Below, one piece after another: positions 5,146 to 45,222 of a stretch of 64,000 nt of DNA. Source of the stretch: Escherichia coli (GTDB lineage: Bacteria; Pseudomonadota; Gammaproteobacteria; Enterobacterales; Enterobacteriaceae); NCBI RefSeq assembly GCF_003018115.1, contig NZ_CP027457.1; one strand, 5' to 3'. The notes under the pieces were generated by a model. It was given only the letters and a program-made list of their open reading frames with translations. It did no database searches and was not told the origin of the DNA. Position 1 is the first letter of the stretch. Every line of letters begins with the position of its first letter. A program made the position numbers and the translations under genes.

Positions 5146-5238
5146 AAAAAAAACCGGATGCGAGGCATCCGGTTGAAATAGGGGTAAACAGACATTCAGA
5201 AATGAATGACGGTAATAAATAAAGTTAATGATGATAGC
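5146..5238 (-). ncRNA. micF: MicF antisense sRNA
   Basis: Reverse complement reads GCTATCATCATTAACTTTATTTATTACCGTCATTCATTTCTGAATGTCTGTTTACCCCTATTTCAACCGGATGCCTCGCATCCGGTTTTTTTT, which is the remembered micF sequence. Divergent from ompC. Terminator hairpin plus U-run present. Confidence 0.9.
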
Positions 5239-5393
5239 GGGAGTTATTCTAGTTGCGAGTGAAGGTTTTGTTTTGACATTCAGTGCTGTCAAATACTTAA
5301 GAATAAGTTATTGATTTTAACCTTGAATTATTATTGCTTGATGTTGGGTGCTTATTTCGCCATTCCGTAATAATCTTAAAAAGTTCCCTTGCA

Positions 5394-13223: not shown

Positions 13224-13598
13224 TGATGTGCCACATCCGGCATGGTATGCCGGATGTGGCGTATGCTGATAAGACGCGCCAGCGTCGCATCAGGCAACCG
13301 GCTCGGGCGTTGGATGTCGGATGCGGCGTAACCGCCTTATCCGACCTACGGGGTGGAGCACTTCACAGCGGTGTAGGCCTGATAAGACGCGTCAGCGTCG
13401 CATCAGGCAACCGGCTCGGACGTTGGATGTCGGATGCGGCGTAACCGCCTTATCCGACCTACGGGGTGGAGCACTTCACAGCGGTGTAGGCCTGATAAGA
13501 CGCGCCAGCGTCGCATCAGGCAACCGGCTCGGGCGTTAGATGTTGGATGCGGCGTAACCGCCTTATCCAACCTATGGGGTGCCGCACTTCACGGCAGT
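13224..13598. repeat. BIME cluster: about three tandem ~113-bp units of REP palindromes
   Basis: Near-identical blocks (GCCGGATGTGGCG.. / GCCTGATAAGACGCG(C/T)CAGCGTCGCATCAGGCAACCGGCTCGG..). ORF-track peptides repeat with a 113-bp offset (13321 vs 13434). Confidence 0.85.
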
Positions 13599-30578: not shown

Positions 30579-30602
30579 CGTATAACCAAACGTATAGCTA
30601 AA
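30579..30602. promoter_or_regulatory. Tandem 12-mers CGTATAACCAAA CGTATAGCTAAA (candidate integrase arm-type sites, distal arm)
   Basis: Same motif and orientation as CGTATAACTAAA CGTATAACTAAA at 41189-41212 next to int. Confidence 0.55.
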
Positions 30603-30772
30603 TTTATTTGCTGAAAAAATGTACAATTTAGAGTCAGATTTTCCCAGATGTTTAATTTATAAAACGAAGCTGGCGGCTGTTCTCTGATATGTGGATCCCC
30701 ATATCTGGAACCCTACCGGAATTTTTTTCCGGTTACCCTTTAATCAGGCTGGTGGGCTTTACCTGTTCGGTA

Positions 30773-30795
30773 GGTATGATCATTATGATCATACC
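30773..30795. repeat. Perfect 23-bp palindrome GGTATGATCAT-T-ATGATCATACC
   Basis: 11-bp arms read directly from the sequence. The nearby hairpin ACCGGAA-ttttt-TTCCGGT lies at 30715-30733. Confidence 0.9.
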
Positions 30796-30848
30796 TTTCG
30801 CCCCAATGGGAGGTAAAAGCGCCAACTGGACGGTTAAACCGTCTTTTT

Positions 30849-30883
30849 GTCACATCGTGTCACTGGTTGTCACTCTCCGTCAC
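30849..30883. repeat. Four GTCAC repeats with exact 10-bp phasing
   Basis: GTCACatcgt GTCACtggtt GTCACtctcc GTCAC, starting at 30849, 30859, 30869 and 30879. Preceded by hairpin GACGGTT-a-AACCGTC plus TTTTT. Confidence 0.9.
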
Positions 30884-30910
30884 GATGTCCGCTCGCCTGG
30901 CTGTAAATCA

Positions 30911-31139
30911 AACTACGAAATTTTCGTAGTTGTGAGTAAGCCCCAAAATATGGGGATTACTCTTACTACCCAAACTACGGGTAGTTTCCGTAGTTTCATA
31001 GTCGAGTTGCAGATCTGCAACTCCCCCACCAGCCAGCGCAATTTTGCGCTTTGCTTTAAGTTCAGCGAGTTACAGCGCCGACTTCCTCAAATTGAGGTTG
31101 CCGGAAATATCAACCAGTTACGAGGCTCAAAATTGAGCC
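30911..31139. repeat. Train of seven short palindromes/hairpins in non-coding DNA
   Basis: 30911-31 AACTACGAAAtTTTCGTAGTT; 30941-55 CCCCAaaataTGGGG; 30972-87 AAACTACggGTAGTTT (plus CGTAGTTT at 30989-96); 31004-23 GAGTTGCAGATCTGCAACTC (perfect 20-mer); 31035-50 AGCGCAAttTTGCGCT; 31085-97 CCTCAAaTTGAGG; 31124-39 GGCTCAAaaTTGAGCC. Confidence 0.9.
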
Positions 31140-31156
31140 GCCTTTAAATCAACACG

Positions 31157-31438
31157 TTACCGCCGTAACCGCTCCGGCTTCTTCCAGTTGTACGTAATTT
31201 TCTCTTTCTCCCTGTACATCTCTACACGGCGATTGTAGGCCAGCATTTCAAGAACGCGGATCCGTATGTCGCGCATATCAACGCCATTAAGTTCTATACC
31301 ATCACGGCGCATCACCTCCACCACTACACGCACATAATTATCTGCGGTCATGCTGTCCGGCTGCGTGGCCTGTTCGTCAACCTGCTGGCTGATTCCGGCG
31401 ACGCGGCGGATTAATCCCAGTATTTCGGCTTCTGTCAT
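31157..31438 (-). CDS. Hypothetical island protein (93 aa)
   Basis: ORF with ATG preceded by a G-rich SD-like stretch. Follows repeat copy 1. No recognisable motif. Confidence 0.5.
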   Translation of the reverse strand: MTEAEILGLIRRVAGISQQVDEQATQPDSMTADNYVRVVVEVMRRDGIELNGVDMRDIRIRVLEMLAYNRRVEMYREKEKITYNWKKPERLRR

Positions 31439-31475
31439 TGTGCCCCCATCGCGCTGGTGAAGAAAACAAGCTCAG

Positions 31476-31690
31476 ATTTTTTGTAAAGAATCTGTCACGC
31501 TAAAAGATGTCGAACAAAAAACAACCTTCTTCATCATCTTTTTTACATCAAAGCAATTAAAAACAATCACTTACGAACATGATGATGATGACGATAAAAT
31601 CAAAAAAATGCGTTTTTTTCCGCGCCGCCCGCCCCGTGTTCAGGCCCACCCCACCAGGAGGACCCGCAAAAAAGGCGGCTGGTGCCGCCT
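31476..31690 (-). repeat. Copy 1 of ~215-bp island repeat (terminator + G-rich cos-like core + A/T tracts)
   Basis: Aligns block by block with 34015-34228. Shared blocks: TTTTTGTAAA, GAACAAAAAACAACC, ATAAAATCAAAAAAATGCG, TTTTTCCGCGCC, CCGCCCCGTG, CAGGCCC..CCCCACCAGGAG and the terminator hairpin. Confidence 0.85.
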
Positions 31691-31695
31691 TGTTG

Positions 31696-33585
31696 TCATA
31701 GTGAATCGGTACCGCCTGATTTGACCATACCGCGATAATCCAGAGCTGCCACACCTGCATCAATACGGACTTTCCAGGCCACGCCGTCAACGATAAAACC
31801 TTCCTGCTGTTCAAGGTAAGGCTCGTCATTGCCATCAAGATAAGCCACCTCGATTGTGTCCGTTCCCTGTGCGGAAAGCATGTACCATTGTTTTTCGCTG
31901 ATATCATCAAGGCGGGGATCGACGATGATATCAAGTAGCTTGTGGTACGGGTTAAAGATCCCGCTGTTTTTATCAGCCCCGAAAGGTGCGGTTGAGTTAA
32001 TCATCTGCAACGCGCGATCTTCCAGTGCTGCCGGAACTAAAAGGAATTTAGGCGCAATATTCAGCACTTCGCCATTTTTGTCCTTCTGTGTGCGCATCAG
32101 GTGACGTGCTGCACTAAGTCCCGGTGTTGTCAGTCCTGCTTCAATCAGGTTGCTGTGTTTTTTGTCAAACAGCGTTATTCCGTCAGAAAGTTTTACGTTG
32201 CCTGTAAGCACCAGATTAACCAGATTTCCCACCGTTCTTGATGCTGCACGGCCCATAGCCATTGGCACCGTTGATAACTGATCAAGGTCATCATTGATTA
32301 TCGCCTGGCGGGTAATGCTGAAAATATTCCCGTAAGTAGCCAGCGCGATGGGTTCACCGCGATCGCTGGTGGTGATGTATTTATATTCTGCCCCTTCCGG
32401 CACTTTGTTTAACGTTGAGAAGCCATTCATACCAACGCGGCGGGCTTCCCGGAAGTTTGAAAGGGAACCTTTTTTCGTCCACTGGCGGAATGTTTCGCCG
32501 CTGTGCTCCCAGCCTGCAAGCACTGATTTTTCAGCGCCACCAGCAAGGATATCGGTAAAATCGCTGCTGCTGTGGGTGAATGCCGCGTTTACTATCTGCG
32601 AGCGTGTGCCGTAGCTGCCCGTGCTTATACCACGATGGGTTAATGATGCCTGTGCCATATCGAAAAGGCTCATCATGGCGTAAGGATTACCGCGTTCGGC
32701 CCGTTCGTGACCAAGACGCGCATTAAGCCCCTGACGCATGGCATCGCCGGTTATATTGCCGTTATCCGTGTACGCGTAGTAAAGATTTGCGGGGGTGGTT
32801 TTGTTTGTTGGCGTTGATTCTTTACCCATAGCGAGTAAAAGGCGTTCGCGTGCATTCTCAACGCTACATTCTGAATCCGCAAGACAACTTATAGCCAGGT
32901 CGTTATATCTTCCGTTGAAGGTGCCAAACAATTCACGGATTCCGTTAAGTCGTTCCTGTTCGCCACTGCCAGTTTTCTGGCTGATCATGCTTTTAATTTT
33001 TTCCGGCATATTTGAAAAATCTCCGATTCGTTTTGATTCAATTCGGGCCATTGCTGTAATCGCGGGTATAACCTCATCTGCGAAGCCGTTAGCCTTACAC
33101 TCATTGCCATCCATCCAGGTTTCCGCCTCCATCATTGAGGTGATCTCCTGTTTGCTCCTGCCCGTTCTTCCGGCATAGGTTTCTGCCATCGTGTCGCCCA
33201 GCTTGTCCATCAGATCAGCAAAGCGGCGAACGTCGCCCGACACTCCGGCAGTAACACCACGGGGGGCATGTATCATCATCATCGCGTTTTCAGGCATAAC
33301 GATGTGATCTCCACACATGGCAATAAACGACGCCATAGAAGCCGCCATGCCTTCAATGTGTACGATTTTTTTTGCCGGATGATTTTTCAGGGCGTTATAG
33401 ATAGCCAGCCCTTCAAAGATGTCGCCACCAGGTGAATGAATGCTCAGATGGATTTCAGACGCATTACCACACGCGTTGATCTCGTCAGTAAGTGCCGATG
33501 CTTTTACACCGTACCCGCCGATCTCGTCATAAATGCGCACATAGACAACATCTGCCATAGCCTTAATGGAAAACCATGTTTTCAT
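31696..33585 (-). CDS. ClpP-family prohead protease fused to phage major capsid protein (629 aa)
   Basis: N-terminus: IHSPGGDIFEGLAIYNAL..GMAASMASFIAMCGD..MMMIHAPRG (ClpP/S14-like Ser and His motifs). The C-terminal ~330 aa resembles HK97-fold/Mu gpT-like capsid proteins (..ALATYGNIFSITRQAIINDDL..WYMLSAQGTDTIEVAYLDG..). Assignment is from memory of the family, not from a search. Confidence 0.75.
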   Translation of the reverse strand: MKTWFSIKAMADVVYVRIYDEIGGYGVKASALTDEINACGNASEIHLSIHSPGGDIFEGLAIYNALKNHPAKKIVHIEGMAASMASFIAMCGDHIVMPENAMMMIHAPRGVTAGVSGDVRRFADLMDKLGDTMAETYAGRTGRSKQEITSMMEAETWMDGNECKANGFADEVIPAITAMARIESKRIGDFSNMPEKIKSMISQKTGSGEQERLNGIRELFGTFNGRYNDLAISCLADSECSVENARERLLLAMGKESTPTNKTTPANLYYAYTDNGNITGDAMRQGLNARLGHERAERGNPYAMMSLFDMAQASLTHRGISTGSYGTRSQIVNAAFTHSSSDFTDILAGGAEKSVLAGWEHSGETFRQWTKKGSLSNFREARRVGMNGFSTLNKVPEGAEYKYITTSDRGEPIALATYGNIFSITRQAIINDDLDQLSTVPMAMGRAASRTVGNLVNLVLTGNVKLSDGITLFDKKHSNLIEAGLTTPGLSAARHLMRTQKDKNGEVLNIAPKFLLVPAALEDRALQMINSTAPFGADKNSGIFNPYHKLLDIIVDPRLDDISEKQWYMLSAQGTDTIEVAYLDGNDEPYLEQQEGFIVDGVAWKVRIDAGVAALDYRGMVKSGGTDSL

Positions 33586-33776
33586 AGCCAGGCTCCTAAC
33601 GTTGCCTGGTACCAGTATTCAACCGCGCTGCGTGTGATTTGTCCTTTCGTGGGCACTGGCATACCCGGGTGATTATCTTTGATGAACTGCTGATAGCGTT
33701 CGATCTTCTCCATAGTTCCGGCGTCTATGTGCACAGTGGCACTTTTATCCGGCTTTCTGGTGTTGTTCTCTGGCAT
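33582..33776 (-). CDS. Small protein (64 aa from second Met), possibly ribbon-helix-helix-like, translationally coupled to the capsid fusion
   Basis: GGAGG lies 7 nt before the ATG at 33776 (MPENNTRK..). The stop overlaps the capsid-fusion start (ATGA). The pattern TVHIDAGTMEKIERY..TKGQITRSAVEYWY suggests a beta-alpha-alpha fold. Confidence 0.55.
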   Translation of the reverse strand: MPENNTRKPDKSATVHIDAGTMEKIERYQQFIKDNHPGMPVPTKGQITRSAVEYWYQATLGAWL

Positions 33777-33970
33777 AAATCCGCCTCCGTTTTGATTAAC
33801 GGGCATCATTATTGATCGATAAAAGTAATAGATAAATCATTTTCTACCTGAAAATCAGATTATGTTTTTTCTGATTATCCTCAGAGAGGCAAAGCCATTG
33901 ACGCATTTTTGCTATTGAAGCAATATTAAGACTCGTCATCCTGGCGATAAAAACTCCTTTGTCGTGTAAA

Positions 33971-34008
33971 AGCGCCTCCGGTAACAGCAATCGGGGGCGC
34001 TTTTTTTT
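33971..34008. terminator. Strong hairpin flanked by A8/T8 in the leader of the capsid operon (bidirectional terminator-like)
   Basis: GCGCCTCCG-11 nt-CGGGGGCGC (9 bp, one G.T) followed by TTTTTTTT on the plus strand. On the minus strand the same stem is followed by TTTTAC. Confidence 0.6.
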
Positions 34009-34014
34009 GCGCCT

Positions 34015-34228
34015 GTTTTTTGTAAATGTTTTCGGGAACGTTCCAGTGATGAACAAAAAACAACCCGATTCGACACTAAAAATTTTTATTCCTCAATATA
34101 TCAATAGCTTATAGTGGTGGTGATGGTGCCATAAAAATCAAAAAATGCGCCTTTTTCCGCGCCCCTCCGCCCCGTGGACAGGCCCCCCCCACCAGGAGTA
34201 CCTACAAAAAAGCCGGATTGCTCCGGCT
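34015..34228 (-). repeat. Copy 2 of ~215-bp island repeat
   Basis: See copy 1. The terminator AGCCGGA-ttgc-TCCGGCT plus a T-run (minus strand) lies immediately after the PerC-like gene. Confidence 0.85.
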
Positions 34229-34234
34229 GTGTGA

Positions 34235-34507
34235 TTAGCTGTCTTGGTAATTACACCATATTTCATCGCTTACACCATCTATACCCATTTCAGCATAAGT
34301 GCGATCTACTGCCTTTCTCAGGTCTCCGAAGTTATCCGGCGGCTCCGGTGGCCTCTGTGCCTTCCTGGAACATTCCAGCCGTCGCATCGTAACCTGATGC
34401 CGTTCCTTGTCTGTCTCCACCAGCTGCATGACTTCACCCCATCGCGCCGCCGCCCTCCGGTAAAATCCTTTCGCCTCGAGTTCCTCCGCTATGCGGTCAT
34501 GTATCAT
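34235..34507 (-). CDS. PerC-family-like transcriptional regulator (90 aa)
   Basis: The N-terminal pattern IAEELEAKGFYRRAAARWGEVM resembles the AE.LE..G..RRAA.RW signature I recall for PerC/Pch proteins. Confidence 0.5.
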   Translation of the reverse strand: MIHDRIAEELEAKGFYRRAAARWGEVMQLVETDKERHQVTMRRLECSRKAQRPPEPPDNFGDLRKAVDRTYAEMGIDGVSDEIWCNYQDS

Positions 34508-34772
34508 CGCCTGACTCTCCGGTTTTTACGTTGATGGTTGTTACCTGTTCCGCTTCGGCAATCTCCCGTTCTGTCAACGTGGCAAAGTTTGCCGCCGCTG
34601 TGGTCATGAATGCGCTTATCAGTTCGGGATGCTCCTTCGCGTATCCTTCCCCCGCGTGGCGGTCTATTACCCTGATTGCCACCTTTAAGGCGTGCTCTGT
34701 CATGTCTAACGCTTTATATTTCGGCTCTGTTCTGTCTCTGCGCATTTTGGTTATCTCCTCACTCATGCTCAC
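34497..34772 (-). CDS. Hypothetical island protein (91 aa, GTG start)
   Basis: ORF overlaps the downstream gene by 11 nt. Part of the tightly packed operon. Confidence 0.5.
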   Translation of the reverse strand: MSMSEEITKMRRDRTEPKYKALDMTEHALKVAIRVIDRHAGEGYAKEHPELISAFMTTAAANFATLTEREIAEAEQVTTINVKTGESGDDT

Positions 34773-34958
34773 TTTTACACCTCACTTTTTAAAGCGTCTC
34801 GCTTCGTCTCACTTGATATTTTTTGATGCTTTATGTGTGTGTTTCATAAGGATTTTTTTACTCCTCACTTTTGAGCATGTATACAGGTGAGAAAGTGAGT
34901 AATCGTGTTAATATTTTGTAAAAACCTCACCATTACTCACTTTTGCTACTCACTTTTT
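34758..34958. repeat. Iteron cluster (CTCACTTTT family) flanking an AT-rich core: candidate island replication origin
   Basis: CTCACT(T) copies at 34758, 34768, 34781, 34808, 34864, 34936 and 34949; CTCACC at 34926; inverted GGTGAG/AAAGTGAG at 34886-34899. The AT-rich stretch is 34815-34862. Lies immediately 3' of the replication ATPase gene. Confidence 0.6.
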
Positions 34959-36366
34959 ACAGTGGTCCTACATCATCACCATCAATGTAAATCACGGCGT
35001 CTTTTTCCAGTTTGGCTAACCATCGCCGCATATTTTTCACGTCATACCCAAGCCGTTTCATGTCATCACGTAACAGCGGGATCGTGCACTTGTCGCCGTT
35101 CTGTGTGCGTGAACGGATGCACCCCCATAGTGCGGTATGGTTTTCCGTCTTGTTGCCTGCCTCCTCGATGCGTTCCAGTTCAACGGGAGGGCGCGGCTTA
35201 TCCACCACCACCAGCGACGTGATTAACTCCCCGTCAGCGTCGGTAAACAGCTCCACCACGCGTAAGTCATATGCGGCTTCTTTGAGTTCCTCCGCGTCCT
35301 TCATTTTGGTGCATGAGATAACCAGCGCTTCGCTTCCTGCGTCCTCCCTGCGTATCCGGTATTCAGCATCCAGTGATGCACGAAATGCACTGGAACCGCG
35401 CGCGCCTTTCGTCTCATCCTTGCCGGAATGGTGAACCACCAGCACCGTGGCCCCTGTGCGTCGTTTCAGTTCGTCACAACCACGGATAAACGCCCCCATA
35501 TCACGGGAATCATTTTCATCATTCCCACCAAAGCAACGCGCCAGCGTATCCAGAATAATCATGCGTACAGGTTTACCCGTTTCCCGCTCCACCTGACGGG
35601 CAGCGATAACCATTTCATCAACATCAAGCGGGACCGCCGGAAAGATGGGACGGTTTACCAGATACAGATTTTTCACCTGCTCACCGTGCACAACCTCCCA
35701 GGCTTTTACACGACGCGGAACGCCGATACCGCCTTCACCAACCACATAGAGAACAGCGCCATGCGCCACCCTGCGGCCTCCCCACTGGCGGCCCGTGGAA
35801 ACGTGACACGCCCACGATCCGGCAAGGAATGATTTATAGGAACCGCTCGCCCCGTATATGCTGCAAAGCGACGATGCCGGAATAATCCCCTTTACCACGT
35901 AATCAAGCTGTGTGTCGTATCCGGTAGATCCAACGCTCATCGGTAGCGTGGTTTTTCGCTGGGGGATTTTTTTCATGACCAGGCTTTCCCCGCGTTCCCA
36001 TGCCTCCCTAAGCCGTGGAAGCTGGTCGCTCCATTCCTCCAGCAATTCGAAATTTTCAGAAAGTAGCCGCGCCTCCTGGACTCCGGCGATCGCCAGTTTC
36101 GTGGCGATGGTTAACAGCTGCGGCTCTTCAATATTTCCGGCGCGTATCACCGTCGCCCTGTATCGCCCATCATCAACAATCTGGAGGTTATCCAGTTTGC
36201 TTAACTGATAACGCCCCAGATAAACGGGAGGGACTGGATCGCCTGCTTTTTTGGCCTGTGCAATGATGTAATGCTCTGCGAATGAGTGAGCATCAATACC
36301 CGCAAAAATAATCGCATCGGTGTATTTATCTTTCGGTAATCGTTTTACGTTCGGTGCCAGTTTCAT
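34957..36366 (-). CDS. Replication ATPase, RepA/AAA_25 (RecA-like helicase) family, 469 aa
   Basis: Walker A GASGSYKS, Walker B RMIILDT and VVHHSGKD motif, typical of RepA-like helicases of plasmids and satellites. N-terminal ~140 aa unassigned. No zinc-finger or Toprim primase motifs seen. Confidence 0.7.
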   Translation of the reverse strand: MKLAPNVKRLPKDKYTDAIIFAGIDAHSFAEHYIIAQAKKAGDPVPPVYLGRYQLSKLDNLQIVDDGRYRATVIRAGNIEEPQLLTIATKLAIAGVQEARLLSENFELLEEWSDQLPRLREAWERGESLVMKKIPQRKTTLPMSVGSTGYDTQLDYVVKGIIPASSLCSIYGASGSYKSFLAGSWACHVSTGRQWGGRRVAHGAVLYVVGEGGIGVPRRVKAWEVVHGEQVKNLYLVNRPIFPAVPLDVDEMVIAARQVERETGKPVRMIILDTLARCFGGNDENDSRDMGAFIRGCDELKRRTGATVLVVHHSGKDETKGARGSSAFRASLDAEYRIRREDAGSEALVISCTKMKDAEELKEAAYDLRVVELFTDADGELITSLVVVDKPRPPVELERIEEAGNKTENHTALWGCIRSRTQNGDKCTIPLLRDDMKRLGYDVKNMRRWLAKLEKDAVIYIDGDDVGPL

Positions 36367-36662
36367 TTTTTACCCCTGAATCCGTTAATCATGGTTTTCA
36401 GCTTCTGGATGTTTGCCCGTGCCCTGGCGTTGCTGGTGGGCACGTTATGCGGCGCGGTCTGTACCAGAGAAAAATCACGCCGGAACTGATAAACAGGCAT
36501 CACGCAATCATATTCGTAACCTTCACGGCGGTAAGTTACGCACCGTCCCGCCACGCCCTTAATCATTACCGTGCCGCCGTACTGGTCGCGGTAAATATCA
36601 CCGCGCGTAAATTTAGGGTGAGTGTTGCCACTGGCAGTTAAGCCAGAATATTTAAGTTTCAT
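36363..36662 (-). CDS. Small protein, DUF4222-like (99 aa)
   Basis: The pattern YRDQYGGTVMIKGVAGRCVTYRREGYEYDCVMP resembles remembered DUF4222 proteins found upstream of satellite replication genes. ATGA overlap with the ATPase gene. Confidence 0.45.
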   Translation of the reverse strand: MKLKYSGLTASGNTHPKFTRGDIYRDQYGGTVMIKGVAGRCVTYRREGYEYDCVMPVYQFRRDFSLVQTAPHNVPTSNARARANIQKLKTMINGFRGKK

Positions 36663-36667
36663 TATTT

Positions 36668-36901
36668 TTATTCTCCGGTGTGCTGTTCGTTATATCTGTC
36701 GTGCAATGTCTCTATTTCCTGCAACTCATTTATTACAGGCTCAAGAAGCGTTATTAATGCCGTGGCAATTCTTGATTTTTGTTTGTCGCGTTCATTGTCG
36801 CCAAGTGTTTCAAGCCATATGCGCAATATTTCCATCATATTTTCACTGTGAGAAAGTGCAAGAAATACGCGATCTGTTGTTTCGTGGTAAATATCACGCA
36901 T
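36668..36901 (-). CDS. Hypothetical small helical protein (77 aa)
   Basis: ORF packed 1 nt after the upstream stop. Confidence 0.5.
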   Translation of the reverse strand: MRDIYHETTDRVFLALSHSENMMEILRIWLETLGDNERDKQKSRIATALITLLEPVINELQEIETLHDRYNEQHTGE

Positions 36902-36902
36902 A

Positions 36903-37124
36903 TTAATTACCGTCCGTTGTTTTTCTTAAAACAGCTTCTGTCACGAAATCGGCATAGTTAGCGGCAATATCAAGAATATTTAGCCCTGTATCTCTGTGCT
37001 CATCAGTGCAAAGAAAGAAAAAAGCCACCCGCATAATTTCAGATATTGACGAAAGCGCATCAGCCGCATCATCAGGAACGCCGGAAAATTCTTGTTTCAG
37101 GGAATAAAAACGATCATCACGCAT
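36903..37124 (-). CDS. Hypothetical small protein (73 aa from MRDDRFY)
   Basis: The ATG at 37124 overlaps the upstream stop (ATGCGTGA) and is preceded by a GGGGGGG SD-like run. Confidence 0.5.
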   Translation of the reverse strand: MRDDRFYSLKQEFSGVPDDAADALSSISEIMRVAFFFLCTDEHRDTGLNILDIAANYADFVTEAVLRKTTDGN

Positions 37125-37356
37125 AACCCCCCCCATTTTCACAATCAGTAATCAGGATGGTTTTAGCCTCATTCAGTGCCATATCAGCACTAAATTGCAT
37201 AACAGCCAGTGAGTGAGGAACGAAAGCCCCGGTATATTCTGTTTCGCTGGTGGCGTGCTTATGTGCCCTGTCCGCGATAACAGAAATATCAATCAGCGCG
37301 TGCATCAGCGTTTTGATGGCTTCGGCGGCTGCGTCCGGTGTGGTTTTATTGTGCAT
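37117..37356 (-). CDS. Hypothetical small protein (79 aa)
   Basis: ORF overlaps the upstream ORF by 11 nt. Confidence 0.5.
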   Translation of the reverse strand: MHNKTTPDAAAEAIKTLMHALIDISVIADRAHKHATSETEYTGAFVPHSLAVMQFSADMALNEAKTILITDCENGGGYA

Positions 37357-37675
37357 AAAGCATCCCCTGAATATTCGTGTTAATCATTCCGGCACGTTTT
37401 GTGATTTCCTGTAATGATTCCCTTGTGGCGACAATTGCTTCATCTGGTAAGTGGTAATTACACACCACGCGACCTTTATCCACATTGACCAGTAGCTGCC
37501 CTGTGAATTTCTCACGAAACTGAATGCGGTTAAGGTCAGTAAGTGACAGATTAATAATGGCGCACCTCCTGACGAATACGGGCGGCAAATACAGCAACAC
37601 AACCGGACGGGCAACGGTTACGCGCTTCGCGTTCCGTCCAGGCGGTGACGTGGATGATTTGAGATTCTCCGGCAC
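37346..37675 (-). CDS. Hypothetical protein, start uncertain (109 aa from GTG 37675; ~71 aa if initiated at ATT 37558 after AGGAGG)
   Basis: Long open frame overlapping the icd-like ORF out of frame. A strong AGGAGG (37570-37565) has no canonical start codon at proper spacing, only ATT. Confidence 0.4.
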   Translation of the reverse strand: MPENLKSSTSPPGRNAKRVTVARPVVLLYLPPVFVRRCAIINLSLTDLNRIQFREKFTGQLLVNVDKGRVVCNYHLPDEAIVATRESLQEITKRAGMINTNIQGMLYAQ

Positions 37676-37748
37676 TCAGGGCCAGAAAACGCCACACAAA
37701 GGCAGTTTGTGTGTGTACAAGGTGTGGTATATGATTTACGGCAACCAT
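37551..37748 (-). CDS. Small protein (65 aa), tentatively Icd-like (host cell division inhibitor family)
   Basis: GAGGAG SD 5 nt before the ATG. First gene of the leftward operon. The pattern FVWRFLALS..IIHVTAWTEREARNR..VFAARIRQEV resembles my recollection of Icd-like proteins of P4-like elements. Unverified. Confidence 0.5.
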   Translation of the reverse strand: MVAVNHIPHLVHTQTAFVWRFLALSAGESQIIHVTAWTEREARNRCPSGCVAVFAARIRQEVRHY

Positions 37749-37812
37749 AACGGCTCCTCGTTTACGTTGTTGGTTAGAAGCCCCGTTACTGCTCCTACAG
37801 TGCGGGGTTTCG
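37742..37812 (+). ncRNA. Candidate small RNA A (cis-antisense to the RBS/start of the icd-like gene)
   Basis: Promoter-like TTGTGT (37707-12) -17 bp- TATGAT (37730-35). Hairpin GCCCCG-17 nt-CGGGG (37780-37807) followed by TTTCGTCGTTTC. A homologous unit lies at 38453-38565. Confidence 0.35.
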
Positions 37813-37837
37813 TCGTTTCAACACCTTGCCTAAATAA

Positions 37838-37891
37838 GGTGTTGAACACCAATTTAAATCGAGGTGTTAAACACGTCAAGTGTTGAACACT
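37838..37891. promoter_or_regulatory. Three palindromic operators (GGTGTTGAACACC family) overlapping divergent promoter-like hexamers
   Basis: 37838-50 GGTGTTgAACACC (perfect); 37863-75 GGTGTTaAACACG; 37879-91 AGTGTTgAACACT (perfect). Minus strand: TTGACG (37879-74) -17- TAAATT (37856-51). Plus strand: TTGAAC (37883-88) -17- CATACT. Confidence 0.6.
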
Positions 37892-37940
37892 TATTTTTTT
37901 TCCTGCATACTGCATTTGTTTTTTATGAGGGGTGCTCAAC

Positions 37941-38120
37941 ATGGCGACAAAAGCAGTAAACGCAAAATCACAAACAGTTGCGGCAAGGGTTCCACATGAA
38001 GTTATGAACAATGTTGAGGCGGTAAAAATGCCCGGCGAAAGTACAGGGCAGTTTGTTACAGCTGCATTAAAGCGGGAAGTTGAATACCGCCAGCGTCGCA
38101 AGGCCAAAGAATCAGAATAA
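37941..38120 (+). CDS. Ribbon-helix-helix DNA-binding protein 1 (59 aa)
   Basis: ATG preceded by GAGGGG. TVAARVPHEVMNNVEAV..STGQFVTAALKREV fits a beta-strand/helix/helix (CopG/Arc/MetJ) layout. Confidence 0.65.
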   Translation: MATKAVNAKSQTVAARVPHEVMNNVEAVKMPGESTGQFVTAALKREVEYRQRRKAKESE

Positions 38121-38177
38121 TCACTATCAGCGCCGTGGTGTGAGGTACTACGGCGCATTGCTTTACAGGGCAGTATC

Positions 38178-38405
38178 ATGACCAACAACACACTATCACC
38201 AATACAAGACACGCAAACGCAAGATGATGAAATCATCCGGCAAAGGCAGTCAGAAGCCTGCGCCAGACTTGAGGAAGAACTAACCAGAACAAAAATACCA
38301 CCACCAGCGCCGCGCTTAGTGCCACCAGAAAAATTTGCCCTTGAAGATTTTGTCGATAAATACCCACGGCGGCTTAAATCCGGCAAAAACCGACCGCCTG
38401 GCTGA
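38178..38405 (+). CDS. Small protein (75 aa), paralog of 38856..39059
   Basis: MTNN.. start. Shares the motif F.L(E/D)(D/E)F(V/L).KY.R with the second copy. Confidence 0.5.
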   Translation: MTNNTLSPIQDTQTQDDEIIRQRQSEACARLEEELTRTKIPPPAPRLVPPEKFALEDFVDKYPRRLKSGKNRPPG

Positions 38406-38487
38406 GTGCACAAAACCGAACTATGAAACGGATTATTCCGTTTCCGGGGCGTTTGTGTGTGTATAAAGAGTAAGCTATGCTCTTTTA

Positions 38488-38565
38488 TAGCCATAATCGT
38501 TACCTCAATTAATGGTTTGGTTAGACGCCCCGTATGTGAGCCACCACTGCGGGGCGTTGTTTTTT
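38488..38565 (+). ncRNA. Candidate small RNA B (homolog of RNA A with a strong intrinsic terminator)
   Basis: TTGTGT (38453-58) -17 bp- TATGCT (38476-81). TTGGTTAGA, then stem ACGCCCCG (38525-32) / CGGGGCGT (38550-57), then TTGTTTTTTG. Confidence 0.4.
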
Positions 38566-38583
38566 GTATAACGGTAAGTACAA

Positions 38584-38624
38584 TGGTAATTACCATGTAA
38601 CTATAGTAATTAAGGGTAATTACC
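38584..38624. promoter_or_regulatory. Palindromic operators GGTAATTACC (x2, plus a degenerate middle copy) at the RHH-2 start
   Basis: TGGTAATTACCA at 38584-95, AGTAATTAAG at 38605-14, GGTAATTACC at 38615-24, abutting the ATG at 38625. Confidence 0.55.
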
Positions 38625-38798
38625 ATGTCAACACCATTGGAAAAGCGATCGCCTCCATACCAAATGCGGCTACCAGAAGAATTCAGAGCACAACTTGAAG
38701 AGGCAGCGAAAGCAGACGGTGACACTTCTTTAGCCACCTGGATCAAGCGAGTACTCCGAAAAGAATTACAGCAACGCGGTATTGAACCCAAAGGATAA
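38625..38798 (+). CDS. Ribbon-helix-helix (Arc-like) DNA-binding protein 2 (57 aa; below the ORF-track cutoff)
   Basis: Manual translation gives MSTPLEKRSPPYQMRLPEEFRAQLEEAAKADGDTSLATWIKRVLRKELQQRGIEPKG. The MRLPEE..L..AA...G.S....I pattern is typical of Arc/MetJ-type repressors. AAGGG SD lies 8 nt upstream. Confidence 0.6.
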   Translation: MSTPLEKRSPPYQMRLPEEFRAQLEEAAKADGDTSLATWIKRVLRKELQQRGIEPKG

Positions 38799-38855
38799 AA
38801 AACATCAGCGCCGTGGCGTGAGGAACTCCGGCGCATTGCTTTACAGGTACACACA

Positions 38856-39059
38856 ATGACCAACAAAGAATCAACCAATACACCATCGCAAAAAACGAAC
38901 AGAGAGCACGAAAATATGGCGTTCGAGCATGAATCAGAAAGATTCGCACCATGCGCTTTTGTCCTTGATGAGTTTCTAAAAAAATATTCACGTTCTGAAC
39001 GGATGAAAATGGCAGCACAATACGGCCCCAACAAGCAAGATAATTGCCCACCAGCCTGA
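38856..39059 (+). CDS. Small protein (67 aa), paralog of 38178..38405
   Basis: MTNK.. start with FVLDEFLKKYSRSERMK motif. Preceded by the conserved 44-nt hairpin block. Confidence 0.5.
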   Translation: MTNKESTNTPSQKTNREHENMAFEHESERFAPCAFVLDEFLKKYSRSERMKMAAQYGPNKQDNCPPA

Positions 39060-39127
39060 TCGCGGTTATCATGCCCGGGCTTATGATTGTTGACACATAC
39101 GGCGCAGCGGGTTAATTGTTCAGAAAG

Positions 39128-39156
39128 GTGGCTCCATTTCGGGGCCGCTTTTTTTA
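39128..39156 (+). terminator. Rho-independent terminator ending the rightward RHH operon
   Basis: GGCTCC-atttc-GGGGCC stem, then GC and TTTTTTT. Confidence 0.6.
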
Positions 39157-39180
39157 TGTTCATCATTTGCCCTATATATG

Positions 39181-39387
39181 TTAAGCGGTCGTTCCGCGCG
39201 CTTCTTGTTCGCGTTCTTTCATCCATGCGATTACGTCTTCCTCATACCATCCGCGACGGCGCAAACCGACACGAAAACCCTGCGGGAATTCTCCGGCGTT
39301 GATCATGCTTTGCAGCGTGCTGTCTGCCTTAATGTGGATAAGTTTTTTTACTTCCTGGCGAAAGATGACTTTTTTGATTGCTTCCAT
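39181..39387 (-). CDS. AlpA-family phage regulatory protein / excisionase-like (68 aa)
   Basis: The pattern ..LIHIKADSTLQSMINAGEFPQGFRVGLRRRGWYEEDVIAWM.. matches the MerR-like wHTH AlpA/Xis family signature (R.v.W...dV..W). Confidence 0.8.
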   Translation of the reverse strand: MEAIKKVIFRQEVKKLIHIKADSTLQSMINAGEFPQGFRVGLRRRGWYEEDVIAWMKEREQEARGTTA

Positions 39388-39406
39388 CGTGATTTACCTC
39401 ATTAAT

Positions 39407-39488
39407 CCGGTGTATTCCGGTGAGAAATACGGTAAATCATCGGATGCAGGGAAAAACAGTACTCACCGTTTTTAAACGGTATACACCG
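39407..39488. promoter_or_regulatory. Nested inverted repeat across the alpA promoter region
   Basis: CCGGTGTAT (39407-15) and CCGGTGAG (39417-24) pair with CTCACCG (39462-68) and ATACACCG (39481-88). Confidence 0.55.
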
Positions 39489-39520
39489 TTTTTTATATTG
39501 ATGATTTGAAAGGGATTTAT

Positions 39521-39546
39521 AAAAAAAGCGGCATTTCTGCCGCTTT
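39521..39546 (-). terminator. Rho-independent terminator after orf83
   Basis: Minus strand: GCGGCA-gaaa-TGCCGC followed by TTTTTTT. Confidence 0.7.
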
Positions 39547-39554
39547 CAGGATTG

Positions 39555-39806
39555 TTACCGCCATTTTTTTGGCCTGCCTCCGGTCTTCATGGATGCCGGA
39601 CGTACAACCTTATCAATACTTACAGCCAGATTTCTGGAAGCCCCACGGGATACCAGGAAATCTACTACCTGTTTTTTTGATGGGGCCGTCGTTCTGTCCT
39701 CCGGATCGTAGGTTGACCAAAATTCATGCTGAACCATCAGGGCCAGTTGCAGCCCGTCGCAATTGCATCTGAAATTTGTTTGCATCTTAACAGTTTCATT
39801 TTTCAA
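39555..39806 (-). CDS. Hypothetical protein (83 aa) downstream of int, basic C-terminus (GGRPKKWR)
   Basis: ORF between int and its terminator. No confident family assignment. Confidence 0.45.
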   Translation of the reverse strand: MKNETVKMQTNFRCNCDGLQLALMVQHEFWSTYDPEDRTTAPSKKQVVDFLVSRGASRNLAVSIDKVVRPASMKTGGRPKKWR

Positions 39807-39883
39807 GGCCTCGTCGTTAAATGTGATGCAATTATACGACGGTTTTAAATGGTTTTCGTAGTTTTTACTGGTTTTCTGTACAG

Positions 39884-41125
39884 CTAAACGGCTCGGATAC
39901 CCCTTTTACCACTGGCGAGGGTTACGCCCGTCGCCGCAGCCTCGACAAATTCGCCCCACCAGCGCATAAGCACGATGCGTTTTTCTATGTAGTTGCTCCG
40001 GTTGTATGCCCGTCTGACTTCGTTGGTGTCGACGTGGGCAAGTGCGGCCTCTATTACGTCCGGCTCAAAGCCTTCTTCGTTCGCTGCTGTGCTGAATATG
40101 GCGCGTAATCCATGAGACACCAGCACGCCAGCGAATCCCATGCGTCGTAATGCTGCGTTAGCGGTCTGGCTGTTCATCGGCTGCTGTGGGTCTTTCAGAC
40201 TCGGGAAAACATAATCGCGGTGGTGGCTGATTGGTTTCATAGCCTCCAGCACTGCCATAGCCTGGTCACAAAGCGGGATAACGTGGTCGCGGCGCATCTT
40301 CATGCGTCCGGCGGGTATGGTCCAGCGTTGCGCTTCCATGTCGATTTCTTCCCAGCGTGCCGACGATGCTTCAACGGGACGGGTTACGGTCAGTAACTGC
40401 CATTCAATCAGTAATCTGGTCTGCCGTTCTGTTGCCGATACTGATAAAGCCTGCATAAGCTCCGGCAGCTGTTCGGGGCGGATTGTTGGCATATGTTTTT
40501 TTACAGGGGAGGGGAACGCCTTACGCACATTCATAGCCGGATTGGCATCAATCATCCCACTATTGGCGGCGTAATCCATTACCTCATTTATACGCTGTAA
40601 AACTCGCTTGAGCGTTTCCAGGTTGCCACGTTCCTTGATGGGGGTAAGCACCTCAACGAACCTGCGAGCGGTCAGGGTGTCTATTGGCGTGTTGCCGATG
40701 AACGGGAATACATATTTTTCCAGCGATCGCCAGATGTCTTTAATCGTATTGGGGGCCAGATTCTGGCTGATTTTCACCTGGTACCATGCTGTTGCCACAT
40801 TTTCGAACGTGTTCCCTTGTCTTCGGGCCTCTGTCTCTCTTTTTTGCCTCTCGTGGTCCTGCGGGTCAGTTCCGGCACGAATTAACGCCCTGTACTCGCT
40901 ACGGCGTTTTCTGGCATCAGCCAGGGAAACATCATCAAGCGATCCAAAACTCAGCAATATTCTTTTTTTGTCCGATGGTCGGTAGTAGGAAAATCTCCAG
41001 AGTTTTGATCCGGACGGTTTGATCAGGAGAAAAAGCCCTCCGCCGTCCTGTAGGGTGTATTCCTTTTCTGCTGGTCTGGCTGCTTTGATCTGTACTGTGG
41101 TTAATGGGGGTGTTTTTCTCGCCAT
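39884..41125 (-). CDS. Tyrosine integrase, P4-type (413 aa)
   Basis: N-terminal DUF4102-like arm-binding region (LTTVQIKAARPAEKEYTLQDGGGLFLLIKPSGSKLWRF). C-terminal catalytic motifs (HGLRAIFST..AHVDTNEVRRAYNRSNY). Adjacent to the tRNA. Confidence 0.92.
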   Translation of the reverse strand: MARKTPPLTTVQIKAARPAEKEYTLQDGGGLFLLIKPSGSKLWRFSYYRPSDKKRILLSFGSLDDVSLADARKRRSEYRALIRAGTDPQDHERQKRETEARRQGNTFENVATAWYQVKISQNLAPNTIKDIWRSLEKYVFPFIGNTPIDTLTARRFVEVLTPIKERGNLETLKRVLQRINEVMDYAANSGMIDANPAMNVRKAFPSPVKKHMPTIRPEQLPELMQALSVSATERQTRLLIEWQLLTVTRPVEASSARWEEIDMEAQRWTIPAGRMKMRRDHVIPLCDQAMAVLEAMKPISHHRDYVFPSLKDPQQPMNSQTANAALRRMGFAGVLVSHGLRAIFSTAANEEGFEPDVIEAALAHVDTNEVRRAYNRSNYIEKRIVLMRWWGEFVEAAATGVTLASGKRGIRAV

Positions 41126-41156
41126 ATGCTTATGATTCCAAACGAAAAAACAGGGT

Positions 41157-41212
41157 TTTAGTTATACGGCTTTAGTTATACGTCAGCCCGTATAACTAAA
41201 CGTATAACTAAA
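41157..41212. promoter_or_regulatory. Four 12-mers (2 direct TTTAGTTATACG + 2 inverted CGTATAACTAAA) upstream of int
   Basis: Copies at 41157-68, 41171-82, 41189-200 and 41201-12. Same motif as 30579-30602 at the other island end. Confidence 0.6.
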
Positions 41213-41215
41213 AAA

Positions 41216-41336
41216 TCCGGCTGATAGCTTATAAATCCGGTGATGTTCGGTGACTAAAAACCATAAAAAAACCCGCCAATCAAGTAATTGGCGGGCTATC
41301 CCTGTCTTATTCGATGATTTCCGGTGGTATCCGGTG
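41216..41336. promoter_or_regulatory. Cluster of TCCGGTG-type motifs between int and the att core
   Basis: TCCGGCTG at 41216, TCCGGTG at 41236, TTCGGTG at 41246, TCCGGTG at 41320 and 41330. The same heptamer occurs twice in the alpA promoter (39406-39424). Confidence 0.5.
41264..41295 (-). terminator. Rho-independent terminator downstream of proL (supplied by island DNA)
   Basis: Minus strand: CCCGCCAAT-loop-ATTGGCGGG followed by TTTTTTT. Confidence 0.7.
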
Positions 41337-41358
41337 GGCGATTTGGTCGGCACGAGAG
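41337..41358. repeat. tRNA-proximal att repeat
   Basis: GGCGATTTGGTCGGCACGAGAG. Pairs with 30496-30517. Confidence 0.75.
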
Positions 41359-41420
41359 GATTTGAACCTCCGACCCCCGACACCCCATGACGGTGCGCTA
41401 CCAGGCTGCGCTACGTGCCG
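41344..41420 (-). tRNA. proL: tRNA-Pro (anticodon GGG)
   Basis: Reverse complement is CGGCACGTAGCGCAGCCTGGTAGCGCACCGTCATGGGGTGTCGGGGGTCGGAGGTTCAAATCCTCTCGTGCCGACCA (77 nt, encoded CCA, T-loop GGTTCAAATCC, U-GGG-G anticodon loop). Confidence 0.93.

Positions 41421-44829: not shown

Positions 44830-45222
<393 letters not shown>

Follow-up and report, generated by a model that had tools for sequence, protein, structure and literature searches.

We examined a window of 64,000 nucleotides (nt) of an Escherichia coli chromosome (contig NZ_CP027457.1) that contains two copies of a small RNA gene, here called RNA A and RNA B, within an island of ~10 kb. Our results support a model in which RNA B serves as cis-antisense lock in the second of two tandem immunity modules, each made up of a ribbon-helix-helix (RHH) repressor gene and an RNA, and in which the island is a satellite of the P4 or phage-inducible chromosomal island (PICI) type at proL; we give this model a probability of about 0.5. 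Judged by its sequence, RNA B genuinely duplicates a small antisense RNA gene, and it has a perfect cis target in the leader, Shine-Dalgarno (SD) sequence and AUG of the predicted transcript from a leftward promoter, P_L2. It belongs to an RNA family that is widespread and is uncatalogued in Rfam.

The original prediction, made from the letters alone, described a TTGTGT-17-TATGCT promoter, a hairpin RNA and a strong intrinsic terminator on the plus strand, and all of these are present at 38453-38566; the gap of ~45 nt that it placed after the -10 hexamer is in fact 35 nt, counted to the string TTGGTTAGA. Transcription is predicted to start near 38487-38489. RNA B contains TTGGTTAGACGCCCCG at 38517-38532, CGGGGCG at 38550-38556 and a run, TTGTTTTTTG, that ends at 38566, and its terminator consists of an 11-bp G+C-rich stem followed by GUUUUUUG. 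The calculated fold energy is -34.0 kcal/mol (z = -5.2, compared with -3.8 for RNA A). The suggestion that RNA B is a paralog of RNA A also held: the two are homologous, share TTGGTTAGA(N)GCCCCG, and align end to end as units from the -35 hexamer through the terminator (~115-150 nt, mean column identity 78%). Within the 64 kb, the 16-mer TTGGTTAGANGCCCCG has exactly two occurrences, one per RNA gene, and the same is true of the 29-nt promoter pattern; 100 shuffles give an expectation of none by chance. Under a covariance model built for the family, RNA B reaches 90.7 bits and RNA A 77.7 bits, and there is no third copy in the window. RNA A, like RNA B, is predicted to fold into two hairpins, of which the first exposes the anti-SD CCUC in its loop and the second is the terminator. 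In both RNAs, the 5' end of stem-loop 1 (AGCCA/AACCA, the antisense of the start codon) is paired with UUGGUU, and the segment TTGGTTAG, previously described as single-stranded, is predicted to be paired in both as the 3' half of stem-loop 1.

The string TTGGTTAGA (37770-37778 and 38517-38525) is identical to one in the D-loop of several E. coli tRNAs (GCTCAGTTGGTTAGAGC), a likeness that is probably a coincidence. The idea of a tRNA D-loop mimic was dropped as unsupported, as was a boxA-like reading of UCUAACCAA.

RNA B had been described as lacking a gene opposite it, but the minus strand there carries P_L2, a leader, a GAGGT motif, an ATG at 38494 and 14 Icd-like codons in frame with an open reading frame (ORF) of 496 codons. 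These 14 codons, MAIKEHSLLFIHTQT, run down to ~38450 and are homologous to the N-terminus, MVAVNHIPHLVHTQT, of the intact Icd-like protein encoded downstream; the homology breaks off after codon 14, at the junction with the end of orf-1b. Transcription from P_L2 is predicted to start near 38596, which gives a leader of ~100 nt that RNA B overlaps entirely. RNA A is likewise antisense to the SD sequence and ATG of the intact Icd-like gene (icd). The two tandem modules, with module 2 located 747 bp upstream of module 1, share a common layout of RNA gene, palindromic operators, leftward promoter among the operators, RHH gene, hairpin and small ORF. The hairpin between the RHH gene and the small ORF is conserved in both (38130-38156 and 38807-38833, plus strand; GCGCCGTGG..CGGCGC, then ATTGCTTTACAGG). 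In the single-module island of E. coli O157:H7 SS52 (L002), a homologous right-hand module, comprising the terminator half of the RNA, GTAATTACC operators, a TTGACA -35 hexamer and the RHH gene, stands directly upstream of a full-length Icd-like gene; the RNA there is chimeric, its 5' half being of A type and its 3' half of B type.

Both RNAs belong to a family with at least 58 distinct members, carried on contigs of satellites or prophages. When viral contigs were scanned for the exact motif, 120 stretches were retrieved, and removal of chance matches left the 58 distinct RNA-gene variants; the 16-mer is invariant by construction in this set, whose sequences are related and mosaic. Every one of the 58 has an antisense start codon 21-33 nt upstream of the motif with an anti-SD sequence between the two, and a TAnnnT hexamer 8-9 nt upstream of that start codon. 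Because the hexamer is kept while the codons opposite it differ among variants (NHI, QHT, NST, SV, SL, KV), the constraint acts on the DNA, as for a -10 box. In 58 of 58 variants the plus strand also gives the more stable fold (mean -32.7 versus -24.6 kcal/mol for the complement; 8.2 on average), and its stems are rich in G.U pairs, which are equivalent to A.C mismatches on the other strand. The stems covary. In an alignment of 42 sequences, 84.5% of cells are paired, compared with 76.5% when shuffled, and 0 of 500 shuffles reach 84.5%. Pairing drops to 50% or less once the partners are slid, and double changes are seen at 12 pairs, for example A-U versus C-G at the base of stem-loop 2. Several family members have a poor U-tract, so that terminator read-through is likely in them.

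Searches in existing resources returned little for this family. For these RNAs, Rfam gave only chance-level matches, of 17.9 and 18.7 bits, in searches at the gathering score over the whole window and at E <= 10 over 37400-39300, and the family covariance model had no match in P4 or in an Escherichia albertii island (L006). A blastn search of RNA B against phage records gave three matches, all unannotated, a full-text literature search for the 9-mer TTGGTTAGA gave tRNA-derived strings only, and the papers examined on PICIs and capsid-forming PICIs (cf-PICIs) mention no antisense RNA at this position. A profile search of genome contigs with an Icd alignment gave just two loci. In two related contigs there is an Rfam int-alpA RNA (RF02996; L065, 4485-4552, minus strand, and L013, 1276-1346, plus strand), of which the window has none.

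The frame opposite both modules is itself a conspicuous feature of the locus. It begins at ATG 39226, 46 nt inside the 3' end of an alpA-like gene, crosses four plus-strand genes, two RNA genes and every spacer between them, and stops 10 nt beyond the icd ATG, with which it does not share a frame. It does share one with ATG 38494, and 252 open codons lead from this relic ATG to the icd start. There is no stop over the 496-codon span, versus 38 and 27 stops in the other two minus-strand frames. All four plus-strand genes have their third codon positions in register with those of the long frame, and when these genes were resampled synonymously the frame was open in 0.12% of cases under E. coli codon usage, 1.9% under local usage and 6% under permutation; a further 702 nt that are non-coding on the plus strand are likewise open. 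Profile searches (NCBIfam/Pfam and PHROG) found no protein family match for the long frame. Among related islands, it is open in L001, where it has the same stop and still counts 496 codons despite ~65% identity over 37780-38100, and in L002 (314 aa) and L003 (602 aa), where it is in frame with Icd. More widely, it spans the motif in ~90 of 100 distinct related contexts, starts within ~70 nt of the stop of the helix-turn-helix (HTH) gene in 31 of 37 contexts, and is open in seven of eight distinct two-module contexts. What seems to be conserved in the frame is its translation and not a protein product, and its position makes it the equivalent of P4 eta/kil. Annotation pipelines call part of it an Icd-like pseudogene, as PGAP does for the equivalent frame in O157:H7 SS52.

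These observations suggest a working model with four parts per module: an RHH repressor gene, its operators at a leftward promoter, a leader that has a hairpin at its 5' end, and an RNA of ~80 nt, constitutive and convergent, that would cover the leader, SD sequence and start codon of its own module. Module 1 would guard the Icd/Kil-like gene. Module 2 retains the promoter, leader, SD sequence, ATG and 14 codons of another Icd-like gene, fused in frame to the eta-like frame. In the silent state, P_L2 would be limited by RHH-2, and RNA B would pair with P_L2 transcripts and mask GAGGT and AUG 38494. The ~750 nt up to icd would then be untranslated, and the masked transcript would be terminated or degraded. 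RNA A would play the same role for P_L1 and icd. Without RNA B, ribosomes from 38494 would traverse the RNA A target and bring transcription into the icd-replication operon, which is why a second promoter would need a second RNA. Transcripts from the helper-induced alpA-like gene would be translated along the whole frame and would thereby override both locks. Expression, translational block, termination and override are the steps that we infer here; the homology, strand, structure, family, opposite features and open frame on which they build are as described above. AlpA is the helper-induced master regulator of PICIs (PMC11773190), and alpA overexpression drives the reproduction of EcCIEDL933 (cf-PICI paper), the element of O157:H7 EDL933 that is the prototype of the published cf-PICIs. 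The two modules may, as a matter of speculation, respond to different signals, since their operator sets differ. The model offers a concrete, testable account of the silence of PICI-type islands and its override by AlpA induction.

A more far-reaching version of this model is tentative and, in our view, somewhat doubtful: the frame would be kept stop-free over ~1.5 kb only so that alpA-derived ribosomes can pass two serial locks, RNA B would gate the upstream lock, and the interchangeable RNA halves, with TTGGTTAGA as their exchange point, would define immunity types, active also in trans from one co-resident satellite to another.

Several points weigh against RNA B as a working cis-antisense lock. 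The RNA B promoter, whose -35 hexamer matches just 3 of 6 consensus positions, P_L2 and translation from ATG 38494 are predictions only. The minus-strand transcript from 38494 to 37749 has no overall C-over-G bias, so that Rho dependence is unsupported; a single C-rich, G-poor stretch extends leftward from about 38085-38055. The B-type copies are near-identical to one another, and selection on the relic SD sequence and ATG therefore cannot be measured. The tandem state is also uncommon: among 5426 complete E. coli genomes, 1376 have some part of the 1.5-kb control region, and 47 have the two-module form (>=80% of that region). Finally, the one exception among the two-module contexts (L059) has its frame interrupted just upstream of the relic ATG.

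The history of the locus appears to be one of repeated exchange. The junction is common to every B-type copy and thus indicates a single event of origin. The B-type left half nevertheless stands next to no fewer than four different right-hand modules, so the RNA B unit has survived several rounds of recombination. Exchange has occurred at TTGGTTAGA(N)GCCCCG and at the hairpin that follows the RHH gene; in a comparison of the window with L001, this hairpin marks the right-hand edge of a swapped cassette of RHH gene and operators. In that comparison, window 37780-38100 is ~65% identical to L001 6100-6420 inside a region that is otherwise 96-100% identical. This is a swapped cassette of stem-loop 2, operators and RHH-1, and it shows modular exchange of immunity specificity. 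Our findings as a whole suggest that co-resident satellites could cross-regulate one another via shared RNA halves.

This history lends itself to a different explanation, in which a truncated 5' end of icd and its antisense RNA gene are what remains of tandem satellites or of unequal exchange, and the RNA, though perhaps made, regulates nothing of consequence. The end of the icd homology after codon 14, the single ancestral event indicated by the common junction, the mosaic family with its recurrent exchange points and the rarity of the two-module arrangement are all compatible with such a recombination scar. We nevertheless regard it as unlikely, given that the promoter, SD sequence, ATG, P_L2 and operators are all intact, that the frame remains open from the relic ATG to icd here and in most two-module contexts, and that the RNA B unit has been re-assorted with several right-hand modules. 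The alternative that RNA B is part of a longer rightward mRNA, either as a leader or attenuator of RHH-2 or as the terminator of the RHH-1/orf-1b transcript, seems more unlikely still. RNA B and RHH-2 are co-oriented, the RHH-2 ATG lies only 59 nt beyond the terminator, read-through is likely in those family members with a poor U-tract, and there is no good terminator between orf-1b and the RNA B hairpin. Against this stand the stem and U-run of the RNA B terminator itself and a separate candidate promoter for RHH-2, TTGTTT-16-TACAAT (38557-38584, found by eye), upstream of the RHH-2 operators; for the same reasons, we do not favour the earlier thought that RNA B arises by processing from the 5' part of the RHH-2 mRNA.

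The original prediction had instead emphasized action in trans on the icd leader. Here RNA B would be a second repressor that pairs via UUGGUUAGA(N)GCCCCG with this leader or with the leaders of co-resident or incoming satellites, a role that we judge about as improbable as that of an mRNA segment. The complementarity is present but broken, with a longest perfect match of 9 nt, one mismatch, and then 6-7 nt. Cofolding of RNA B with leader A gains -17.5 kcal/mol, beyond shuffled RNA B (-6.0 +/- 2.6; best -16.5), and the reciprocal pair of RNA A and leader B gains -16.6 kcal/mol, whereas cognate pairs gain -104 to -111 kcal/mol, so that the trans interaction is some six times weaker. The shared segment is paired in the RNA folds and leader folds alike, and the loops, where antisense pairing usually begins, differ: those of stem-loop 1 have only CCUC/GAGG in common, and those of stem-loop 2 are not complementary. 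With a perfect target in cis, RNA B does not need one in trans, and action on the icd leader, although possible, would probably be inefficient. Cross-talk between elements is the more plausible trans scenario, since stem-loop 1 of RNA B, loop included, is near-identical to that of RNAs opposite intact first genes in other islands (L083, L020), and up to six such places per E. coli genome make it conceivable. On balance, a cis-antisense lock of module 2 remains the reading that we prefer.

The features of the locus are collected in the following table. The window carries E. coli-type chromosome markers (micF, yejM and a tRNA-Pro GGG at 41344-41420), and this tRNA gene (proL) is the attachment point of the island (30600-41420). 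Downstream of the Icd-like gene, the minus strand carries small ORFs and then DUF4222. The further minus-strand genes of the island include those for an AAA_25 RepA-type helicase, PerC and a ClpP-protease/capsid fusion, alongside int and the alpA-like gene. In cf-PICIs, int, alpA and a replication module are accompanied by capsid genes of their own, with portal and small terminase among them. No portal or terminase gene was seen in the island up to the chromosomal yejO-like autotransporter gene, and the related islands L002 and L003 bear capsid and small-terminase genes; the island may be a reduced cf-PICI-type satellite. Homologous islands with the same annotation are found in E. coli strain 4 (CP045209) and E2863 (AP018802), both carriers of the two-module form, and in O157:H7 SS52. 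The SS52 element has the gene organisation of published cf-PICIs. Below-cutoff matches were obtained for the alpA-like gene with Pfam AlpA (E = 0.003) and for RHH-2 with YlcI_YnfO_N (E = 4.8e-4) and Pfam Arc (E = 0.008). Ordinary chromosomal RNA elements also occur in the window, at 1313-1389, 5146-5239, 13264-13572 and 45136-45161: micF, four copies of naRNA4 (of the repetitive extragenic palindrome type) and the L25 leader.

Table. Coordinates of the two modules and neighbouring genes in the window; promoters, RNAs and operators are predictions.
Feature	Position	Strand	Basis or remark
Icd-like (P4 Kil-like) gene, 65 aa	37551..37748	-	NF033153 phage_ICD_like, E = 5.2e-18; heads leftward replication operon
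RNA A gene	37707..37826	+	Promoter TTGTGT-17-TATGAT 37707-37735; RNA ~37742-37826
eta-like read-through frame, 496 codons	37736..39226	-	Codons 39226 to 37739; antisense to both modules
RHH-1 operator repeats AGGTGTTGAACAC, three copies	37837, 37862, 37878		Around P_L1
P_L1, leftward promoter TTGACG-17-TAAATT	37851..37879	-	9/12 consensus positions
RHH-1 (YlcI/YnfO family)	37941-38120	+	NF041551, E = 2.1e-16
orf-1b	38178-38405	+	With RHH-1 = module 1 (37941..38405)
RNA B promoter-like site TTGTGT-17-TATGCT	38453..38481	+	TTGTGT 38453-38458, TATGCT 38476-38481
RNA B, ~78 nt	38488..38566	+	Two hairpins, fold, covariance-model score
RNA B stem-loop 1	38488-38523	+	Anti-SD CCUC within loop
RNA B stem-loop 2 = terminator	38524-38558	+	Followed by U-tract 38560-38565
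Relic Icd-like start, ATG 38494	38492..38494	-	SD GAGGT 38502-38506, 7-nt gap
RHH-2 operator-like repeats GGTAATTACCATGT	38584..38628	.	Two copies and a degenerate third, straddling P_L2 -10 and -35
P_L2, leftward promoter TTGACA-17-TACTAT	38603..38631	-	10/12 consensus positions
RHH-2, Arc-like ribbon-helix-helix, 57 aa	38625..38798	+	phrog_228 Arc-like repressor, E = 4.9e-7
orf-2b, 67 aa	38856..39059	+	phrog_21027, E = 2.4e-12
Intrinsic terminator after orf-2b	~39128-39160	+	Read from sequence
alpA-like HTH / excisionase-type regulator	39181..39387	-	phrog_66 and phrog_2790, E ~1e-7
Integrase	39884-41125	-	

The arrangement invites comparison with several known systems. It resembles the P4 immunity region in the order of an alpA-like gene (vis/alpA), a long frame from its 3' end and a 65-aa Icd/Kil-domain protein that comes first in the replication operon, and in having an internal promoter and a small immunity RNA within the long frame. 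The overlap of the long frame with the alpA/vis homolog is 46 nt here and 49 nt in P4. P4 eta encodes 214 aa, of which Kil is the last 65, and Eta residues 161-208, inside Kil, match NF033153 (E = 1.4e-20), the same model as the Icd-like protein of the window. Because the direct hhalign comparison of this protein with P4 Kil is weak (E = 0.016), the homology is carried by the common NCBIfam domain; tblastn of the Icd-like protein against phage records gave one weak match, which was not P4. In P4, transcripts from the internal promoter are terminated through CI RNA pairing, and eta translation from the upstream late promoter prevents this termination (PMC10111431).

The differences from P4 are equally clear. 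CI RNA shares the strand of its target and arises by processing of the leader. The RNA described here lies on the opposite strand with its own predicted promoter and terminator; its G.U pairs, -10 hexamer and terminator U-tract all place it on the strand opposite the operon. RHH repressor genes lie antisense inside the long frame here, unlike in P4, and P4 eta is in frame with kil, as the long frame is with Icd in L002 and L003 but not in the window or L001. The Rfam C4 model (RF01695, clan CL00128) has no match at E <= 10 in 37400-39300, nor at the gathering score anywhere in the window, whereas the positive controls, P4 and L006, score 74.9 and 77.7 bits. As with C4/CI, RNA A overlaps the SD sequence and ATG of an Icd-like gene, and RNA B those of a relic, an overlap that is observed and from which the action is presumed. 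In L006, Rfam isrK and C4 lie upstream of the Icd-like gene on the same strand (2747-2935, plus strand), as in P4; with isrK and C4 there and no match to the new model, the C4/CI RNA and the new RNA are alternatives at the same position.

In P1 and P7, c4 RNA is transcribed together with its target, upstream of it and from the same strand, and relies on short a'/b' complementarities. Like the RNAs described here, c4 with icd-ant places a small RNA at the ribosome-binding site of an Icd-family cell-division inhibitor and controls downstream genes, but the RNA here is convergent and fully complementary, and the C4 model finds nothing in the window. In P22, the short cis-antisense RNA sar covers the ribosome-binding site of the antirepressor gene, with which an operon of lytic type begins, and it is accompanied by Arc-like RHH repressors. 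The P22 immI region combines sar RNA with the Arc and Mnt RHH repressors (PMC5415839). The geometry of a short convergent transcript, here a predicted one, over a first-gene ribosome-binding site is shared with sar, as are RHH repressors and operators at the locus; unlike in P22, the controlled genes would be Icd/Kil and replication genes rather than an antirepressor, and the RNA adjoins the RHH gene in the same orientation. Neither RNA has a match beyond chance level to any curated Rfam family, the sar type included, at E <= 10. The pair of RNA A and icd also recalls type I toxin-antitoxin systems of the SymR/SymE kind, with a cis-antisense RNA over the SD sequence and start of a small growth-inhibiting protein. 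Unlike in such systems, the toxin gene opposite RNA B amounts to only 14 codons, with an intact frame opposite RNA A, and the system sits within a mobile-element switch rather than being a stand-alone addiction module. By analogy, the new RNA would work like P22 sar, P1 c4 and P4 CI and yet belong to none of these families. It takes the position that C4/CI has in P4-type satellites, which shows that satellite immunity modules are interchangeable.
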